Origin: Escherichia coli
GTDB lineage: Bacteria; Pseudomonadota; Gammaproteobacteria; Enterobacterales; Enterobacteriaceae
Strand: one strand, 5' to 3'
DNA length: 64,000 nucleotides
Assembly: GCF_009931435.1 (NCBI RefSeq)
Contig: NZ_CP043414.1
The notes under the pieces are model-generated. The model had not been told where the DNA came from. It did not search any database and worked only from the letters and a program-made list of their open reading frames with translations. The position numbers and the translations under genes are program-made. Positions within the stretch are counted from its first letter, which is position 1, and the number at the start of each line of letters is the position of its first letter. Below are positions 32,468-32,845 of this stretch, one piece after another.

Positions 32468-32483
32468 ATTCTTCTAGTGCCAT

Positions 32484-32522
32484 AACCCTGAACGCCGGGC
32501 TTCGGTTAGTAAGGGTTTTTTA
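32484..32522 (+). terminator. ppa intrinsic terminator
   Basis: Stem aaccct...agggtt followed by tttttt. Confidence 0.65.
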
Positions 32523-32817
32523 TGCCCGCAATATATAAACTCTCTATTCCCCTATCATTATTCTCAGCGCTTGCAAGGCTTGAACGGTAAGAACAAGCTA
32601 AACTAGACCACCATTTTGCTGTTCATAGCCGCTTGCTGGAAATTAGCCAACCTCACTCATTCTCACCGTTCAAAGCGTGCCCCCGTTTTACCCCTGCGTA
32701 ATTGTGAACGCCAGCAGAGTTTTTTATGCGTTTACGGATATGGAAAGCGGCTCGGAGAGAAAAGCTAAAGATAGGGAAGTTACAAAAAAAATCGCGAGAT
32801 ACATCGCATAAAACAAC

Positions 32818-32845
32818 GCCACCCGAAGGTGGCGTGCTTTTATTA
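32818..32845. terminator. Hairpin terminator downstream of ytfP
   Basis: cgccacccgaaggtggcg followed by a T-rich run. Confidence 0.65.

Follow-up and report, generated by a model that had tools for sequence, protein, structure and literature searches.

A decayed chpB remnant at the polymorphic ppa-ytfP locus of Escherichia coli

Introduction

The chpS-chpB pair (chpSB, also chpBI-chpBK) is a type II toxin-antitoxin operon of Escherichia coli K-12 and a homolog of MazEF. In strain MG1655 the gene order is tamB, ytfP, chpS (b4224), and chpB (b4225), followed by ppa on the opposite strand, and the interval between ytfP and ppa is 886 bp long. The operon is dispensable in K-12, as multi-toxin-antitoxin deletion strains that include a chpB deletion are viable (PMC5120126), and it is not found in all strains: it is absent from E. 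coli B strains (Yoon et al. 2012, PMC3446290), and PCR surveys of clinical isolates treat chpBIK as variable (PMC11059956). Pastorello et al. (2013, mBio, PMC3735183) compared 47 genomes, of which 53% had chpBS, 15% had esiB, and 32% had neither, and described esiB as flanked by "short direct repeats with partial inverted symmetry". Their third state is given as "both absent", without the words "remnant" or "pseudogene", and both the study of B strains and the PCR surveys score presence or absence only and do not analyze the residual sequence. Within the limited literature that we covered we found only presence/absence reports and no mention of a chpB remnant. The multi-state ytfP-ppa locus and the presence/absence polymorphism of chpSB are in themselves already known.

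A related case is that of ccdO157, a type II toxin-antitoxin pair which, like chpSB, has a fixed intergenic place in the chromosome and is complete in some strains but degraded or missing in others. According to what is said of a 2009 study in Genetics by Mine et al., its decay in E. coli consists mainly of recent point mutations with lesions that vary among strains, and it was reportedly taken as evidence against strong selection on such pairs.

Here we have analyzed a 64,000-nucleotide stretch of E. coli DNA (NZ_CP043414.1), called the window in what follows, in which chpSB had been noted as lacking between ppa and ytfP. The original prediction, made from the letters alone, took this as either an ancestral empty site or a clean deletion, and as the mark of a toxin-antitoxin insertion hotspot. 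We describe what the interval contains, how its alleles are distributed in E. coli and in other Enterobacteriaceae, and how far each of these readings agrees with the data.

Results

Layout of the ppa-ytfP interval

In the window the left flank is ppa, coding for inorganic pyrophosphatase (31937..32467, + strand; a 176-aa ORF), and the right flank is ytfP, of the gamma-glutamylcyclotransferase family (32846..33187, - strand; a 113-aa ORF), beyond which lies tamB (33190..36969, - strand). The two flanking ORFs are annotated as ppa and ytfP in the 99.8%-identical strain MB50, and the latter also in K-12. The interval between them, 32468..32845, is 378 bp long and has no ORF of at least 60 aa on either strand, the longest one having 50 aa (32616..32768, + strand). 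The original prediction was exact in these respects, including the coordinates, and the MG1655 order and its 886-bp interval bear out its placement of chpS-chpB between ytfP and ppa in K-12.

A global MAFFT alignment of the interval to K-12 gives one large gap in which the chpB-derived sequence is scattered, so that the homology is obscured. Sensitive local blastn against K-12 resolved the interval into four colinear pieces, for which we give K-12 positions in the numbering of our K-12 locus (L001). Next to ppa there is a terminator-like hairpin (32484..32521, + strand; AACCCT...AAGGGT) followed by a run of six T, which is common to the alleles with and without chpSB and about 91% identical to the K-12 segment directly 3' of ppa. 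This sequence is kept in K-12 and in the chpSB-less sites of Citrobacter amalonaticus and Salmonella diarizonae, and its fold is no better than that of shuffled sequences (z -0.12). The adjoining segment (32522..32550, - strand; blastn) comprises the last sense codon and the stop of chpB together with the chpB-ppa spacer. The two codons read GAA TAG in the window versus GAA TAA in K-12, and from 32550 onward the blastn match, at 91% identity, runs from six nucleotides before the end of K-12 chpB (L001 2537) through the ppa terminator into ppa. In other alleles of this type, which we will refer to as relic alleles, the 3'-end junction reads GATGGTGGAATAGAG.

The center of the interval is a pseudogene fragment of chpB (32549..32674, - strand) that corresponds approximately to codons 7-48 of the K-12 gene (L001 2211-2337) and was identified by blastn, shuffling, and tblastn. 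It is followed by a 9-nt filler, GGGGCACGC on the minus strand (32675..32683), which occupies the gap between the first and third blastn HSPs and marks the junction of a deletion described below. The remainder, up to ytfP (32684..32845, - strand), is homologous to the K-12 ytfP-chpS spacer, the upstream part of the chpSB cassette (88% identity, L001 1682-1898). A terminator scan placed two tandem ytfP hairpins in this spacer, at 32816-32835 and 32793-32808; the first adjoins ytfP and is a strong bidirectional terminator hairpin (fold z -3.8 and -4.6), and the ytfP hairpin is conserved across Enterobacteriaceae. The statement that the interval holds only terminator hairpins was correct as to the hairpins but not as to the middle of the interval, which is derived from chpB.

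Identification of the chpB remnant

By local blastn the fragment is 72% identical to K-12 chpB over 127 nt (E = 2e-19). In 1000 dinucleotide shuffles the local score averaged 10.5 and never exceeded 16, whereas the 126-nt remnant scores 55 (z = 35). The remnant lies in the slot of K-12 chpSB, between ytfP and ppa, and has its orientation, reading in the ytfP direction. A translated search, the means by which a diverged chpSB was to be looked for, found such a sequence in part: residues 15-43 of ChpB match the remnant at 58.6% identity (tblastn, E = 0.005), and 11 ChpS proteins used as tblastn queries showed no ChpS homology anywhere in the window. Likewise, tblastn with these and 11 ChpB proteins, from seven genera in all, found no intact chpS or chpB in the 64 kb.

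Read in the frame of chpB, the fragment is interrupted by several stop codons, and a 1-nt indel shifts the frame. Neither chpS (83 aa) nor a PemK/MazF toxin ORF of about 116 aa nor the palindrome and ribosome-binding site found upstream of intact operons is present, and the claim that this locus has no functional chpSB holds, with chpS missing and chpB reduced to 126 nt carrying stops and a frameshift. What is present is what a gene relic leaves behind, namely syntenic and colinear homology, a truncated and broken frame, and faster change than in the intact orthologs and the flanks. Compared with the K-12 operon, the slot, the orientation, and the spacer are preserved, but chpS, the palindrome, the ribosome-binding site, the chpB start, and about 200 bp of chpB are not. 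We conclude that this is a decayed pseudogene remnant of an ordinary kind, at a locus already known to be polymorphic.

Two deletions and the palindrome upstream of chpS

The alignment to K-12 that had been proposed as a check set the boundaries of two deletions, L001 1899-2210 and L001 2338-2536; chpSB is not flanked by a target-site duplication. Deletion 1 (about 312 bp; NC_000913.3 4448398-4448709) begins 49 nt before chpS and extends through the whole of that gene into chpB, of which it took the first six codons, and is replaced in the window by the 9-nt filler. Deletion 2 took 199 bp from the middle and 3' part of chpB. In the intact gene it is flanked by two TGGTGG direct repeats, and in most relic alleles its junction still reads GATGGTGGAATAG.

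We aligned the ytfP-chpS spacers of the intact loci of Escherichia, Lelliottia, Enterobacter, strain RIT691, Pseudocitrobacter, and Kluyvera. Directly upstream of chpS they contain the palindrome GTTATACTTTGTATAAC, followed by GGAGG and ATG, which is invariant in seven genera; the other spacer sequence varies. The palindrome is perfect (GTTATAC-TTT-GTATAAC) and lies 14-16 nt upstream of the chpS start, at L001 1917-1933 in K-12 and at the same place in loci L004, L029, L038, L047, L065, and L082. MazE-type antitoxins are autoregulated and, by analogy, this palindrome is probably the ChpS or ChpSB operator together with the core promoter. It falls inside deletion 1, as does the ribosome-binding site. 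Because the palindrome, chpS, and the start of chpB all lie within deletion 1, a single event took the presumed promoter/operator, the antitoxin, and the beginning of the toxin.

These observations show that an ancestral Escherichia chpSB cassette, with the K-12 slot and orientation, lost two internal segments. Deletion 1 alone would silence toxin and antitoxin together and would be a safe route to the loss of a toxin-antitoxin pair, and deletion 2 could have arisen by slippage or by illegitimate recombination between the short repeats. The remnant would then have drifted unconstrained and without function, and the flanking terminators would still serve ppa and ytfP.

Alleles of the locus across E. 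coli

The distribution of the alleles was estimated with three aggregate searches of 5426 complete E. coli genomes. At least 80% of the K-12 chpSB segment was covered in 3098 of them (57%), and chpSB is absent from about 43%. The 169 bp specific to the relic were present in 2062 genomes (38%), a count that includes esiB carriers such as Nissle. The plain relic, with about 2100 genomes (39%), was obtained by subtracting the 3098 from 5198, the number of genomes in which a single place covers at least 80% of the ppa-ytfP query, for which both the plain relic and the chpSB types qualify, and this figure is a difference rather than the result of typing each genome. Two further alleles are less frequent, with esiB in 187-188 genomes (3.4%) and an operon of the bgl-like PTS/GH1/licT type in 12 (0.2%).

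The survey by phylogroup that had been suggested at the outset found both main states within phylogroups A and B2. In phylogroup A, K-12 and HS have chpSB, and ATCC 8739 and BL21, which carry the same relic allele as the window, do not; in phylogroup B2, ST131 has chpSB, and 536, UM146, and Nissle have the relic. The chpSB segment of the O25b:H4-ST131 genome H48 (NZ_CP103710.1) is 99.8% identical to that of K-12, which suggests that chpSB was brought into ST131 by recombination. In a sample of 40 genomes, RefSeq annotation left the relic without a feature in 39.

In the esiB allele a 1.65-kb cassette has been added to the chpB relic; it was inserted at the ytfP terminator hairpin, which is now duplicated, with one copy on each side of the cassette. 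In E. coli ST80 (NZ_CP031215.1; L083 4532-6565) the cassette is flanked on both sides by GCCACCCGNAGGTGGC. The product of esiB is a secretory IgA-binding protein. The bgl-like allele, seen in E. coli N50 (NZ_CM165889.1; L084 5538-10233) and in UPEC132 among its 12 complete genomes, has an operon of beta-glucoside PTS IIABC, GH1 glycosidase, and LicT antiterminator inside the relic, between ppa and ytfP.

The locus is the one studied by Pastorello et al. (2013), and the polymorphism is the same, with the proportions given above for 5426 genomes in place of those for 47. The short repeats that they described around esiB match the duplicated ytfP terminator hairpin, and their "both absent" state is here the chpB relic. 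Unlike in their picture, the esiB and bgl-like alleles are both built on the relic background.

Origin and age of the relic

Six relic alleles were compared at their junctions, those of the window, MB50, ATCC 8739 (phylogroup A), UPEC 536 (phylogroup B2), L006, which is a species-level Escherichia lineage labeled E. coli, and L008, the type strain of E. albertii. Both junctions are the same in the six. At deletion 1 the agreement is six out of six, with a filler that reads GGGTGCACGC in two of them. Since both junctions are common to all relic alleles examined, the event happened once.

Distances were calculated from one alignment per segment. Over the 126 nt of the fragment, the intact chpB genes of five Escherichia lineages differ by 1.6-4.7% among themselves and the relic alleles by 2.4-17.6%, the E. 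albertii relic being 11-18% from the E. coli relics. The relic differs from intact Escherichia chpB by 25-30% (about 27% for the window) and from the chpB of other genera by 41-53%. A neighbour-joining tree places the relic clade, on a long stem, as sister to Escherichia chpB. The simplest reading of the sequences is that an Escherichia chpB would have been inactivated well before the relic alleles of E. coli and E. albertii diverged and would then have drifted, an age estimate drawn from 126 nt alone under an assumed roughly clock-like neutral rate and for an ancestor that was possibly an already-divergent allele.

Compared between ATCC 8739 and 536, the fragment differs by 6.4%, the spacer by 1.9%, and the flanking genes by 0.3-1.5%. 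The relic fragment of L006 is 4% from that of ATCC 8739, and its ytfP-proximal spacer is 18% from ATCC 8739 and 4% from E1V33, a strain with the intact allele. Such mosaic flanks point to recombination moving alleles between lineages. The relic and intact chpSB coexist in E. coli and in other Escherichia lineages, and homologous recombination through the conserved flanks has most likely carried them from one to another.

No allele intermediate between intact and relic was found. One candidate, in strain HH45 (NZ_CP116411.1; L085 1698-2209), is of the relic type but also contains a GC-rich low-complexity insert of 137 nt and 100 nt that match K-12 chpB exactly, and PGAP annotates the interval as an incomplete (partial) PemK/MazF toxin pseudogene. 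It looks like an assembly or polishing artefact and was set aside.

The slot in other genera

A scan with YtfP as query, taking one genome per species, gave 80 loci. Outside Escherichia, intact chpSB was found at this position in at least six genera; the loci are those of Lelliottia, Enterobacter asburiae, strain RIT691, two Pseudocitrobacter species, and Kluyvera genomosp. 1, with amino acid identities of 63-78% to K-12. In seven genera chpS starts 211-215 nt after ytfP and the spacer can be aligned, and this shared offset suggests one old chpSB insertion. Two independent remnants have deletion patterns unlike that of the Escherichia relic: Citrobacter sedlakii (L025 3430-3562) has kept the C-terminal half of chpB (ChpB residues 63-107), and Enterobacter cloacae DSM 26481 (L031 5085-5168) has kept the N-terminus of ChpS (residues 1-31) beside ppa. 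These show repeated decay of chpSB in the family. In many species, including members of Citrobacter and Klebsiella, Salmonella diarizonae, and several Enterobacter, the ytfP-ppa interval is only 99-170 bp long, with little beyond the two terminators, sometimes a REP-like element, and no trace of chpSB. Because the intact, remnant, and empty states are all found across the genera, chpSB appears to have occupied the slot since long ago, with repeated losses.

Other cargo was surveyed in the 3 kb downstream of ytfP (loci L009-L082). A TonB-dependent receptor with a beta-propeller protein is found in many Citrobacter, a chemoreceptor in Silvania and Enterobacter soli, an Hcp-domain fusion protein in C. 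youngae and Salmonella arizonae, and a GGDEF-EAL protein in Huaxiibacter and Lelliottia; Enterobacter also has three small proteins without Pfam match, and small membrane proteins occur as well. No toxin-antitoxin family other than chpSB was seen in the slot. With a single such family, at the same ytfP offset in seven genera, and cargo that is otherwise varied, the idea of a toxin-antitoxin insertion hotspot finds no support in that form, and the slot is a general variable-cargo spot that is not specific for such systems.

Discussion

CONTENT OF THE INTERVAL AND ITS MEANING

We consider it very probable that the 378-bp interval is the dead remnant of a chpS-chpB operon, produced by one series of two deletions with a shared old origin. 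The points that this adds to the published polymorphism are modest, namely the single old origin, the spread across Escherichia species, and the role of the relic as the background for the esiB and bgl-like alleles, and their overall significance is small. The "absent" allele in about 40% of complete E. coli genomes, among them BL21, ATCC 8739, 536, and Nissle, is one old chpB remnant. Furthermore, PCR and gene-presence surveys that score chpBIK as absent are actually scoring the relic, which annotation pipelines leave unannotated. The relic can also serve as a marker allele for tracing recombination at the locus. It is a second and older example of chromosomal toxin-antitoxin decay after ccdO157, from which it differs in being a single old two-deletion allele across Escherichia species, and it fits with the dispensability of chpSB.

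ALTERNATIVE EXPLANATIONS

The alternative that survives best, although we regard it as improbable, is that the fragment comes from a separate chpB-like allele that was already divergent, for example one introgressed from an unsampled Escherichia relative, in which case the remnant would be younger than its divergence implies. The stem of the relic clade is about three times longer than the depth of its crown, which would agree with this reading, and the mosaic spacers of L006 show that recombination across lineages does occur at the locus. However, none of the 80 species-level loci has an intact chpB resembling the relic branch, the relic is closer to Escherichia chpB than to that of any other genus by a wide difference in distance (25-30% against 41-53%), and many of the changes specific to it are stops or disruptions of conserved residues, as expected from decay.

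It is very unlikely that the remnant has acquired a new role, whether as a regulatory element of ppa or ytfP or by coding for a small RNA or a small protein. An allele present in about 40% of E. coli and persisting for so long might be thought to have some use, and some alleles do have short ORFs of 40-53 aa, but no ORF of at least 30 aa is conserved across the relic alleles, and the fragment changes faster than its flanks, as seen between ATCC 8739 and 536. Rfam gave no match at E <= 1 (window positions 31000-34000), and the promoter-like sites in the scan were at chance level, with only the ytfP hairpins standing out. Judged from its sequence, the decayed remnant would be neither transcribed nor functional.

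The two readings of the original prediction fare worst, and we give both of them practically no weight. A recent clean deletion of chpSB from a K-12-like allele in the lineage of this strain might seem to agree with an absence that is polymorphic even within phylogroups, which at first sight looks like frequent recent losses; nevertheless, its divergence from intact Escherichia chpB is 25-30% in every case, B2 strains, another Escherichia lineage, and E. albertii have the same pair of junctions, and two separate internal deletions with a 9-nt filler do not fit a clean excision. The ancestral empty site, in which chpSB was never here in this lineage and K-12 gained it by insertion, is a state that exists in the family, in the many intervals of 99-170 bp with two terminators and no chpSB trace, but the window does not have it, because its interval is 378 bp long versus about 100-170 bp and still holds, in syntenic and colinear order, chpB sequence (126 nt, z = 35), the chpB stop with the codon before it, and a part of the chpS-upstream spacer (about 150 nt) that is missing from the empty sites of other genera.

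PERSISTENCE OF THE POLYMORPHISM

Returning to the old two-deletion remnant, its coexistence with intact chpSB allows a more speculative proposal, which we put forward as a possibility that is rather doubtful at present. Intact and relic alleles would form a long-lived presence/absence polymorphism across Escherichia species (E. coli phylogroups A and B2, the L006/L007 lineage pair, and E. albertii) that is kept not by simple drift but by balancing selection, for instance between a niche benefit of ChpB and its cost, or by alleles introgressing repeatedly by way of the conserved flanks (ppa, ytfP, and tamB), and the relic background would be a preferred landing pad for esiB and the bgl-like operon.

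Finally, the window itself was compared with other genomes (33190-45000 and 30671-31936). Over 11.8 kb its identity to typical E. coli is only about 95-96%, and to the representatives of other Escherichia species 90-94%; the complete genomes that match it best are N96 (98.8%), isolated from a Tibetan pig, and MB50, a poultry strain from Cuba. From these identities its source would seem to be an E. coli lineage that is divergent and close to the species boundary. The ytfP gene of the window is nevertheless 100% identical to that of ATCC 8739, and thus the region is mosaic.
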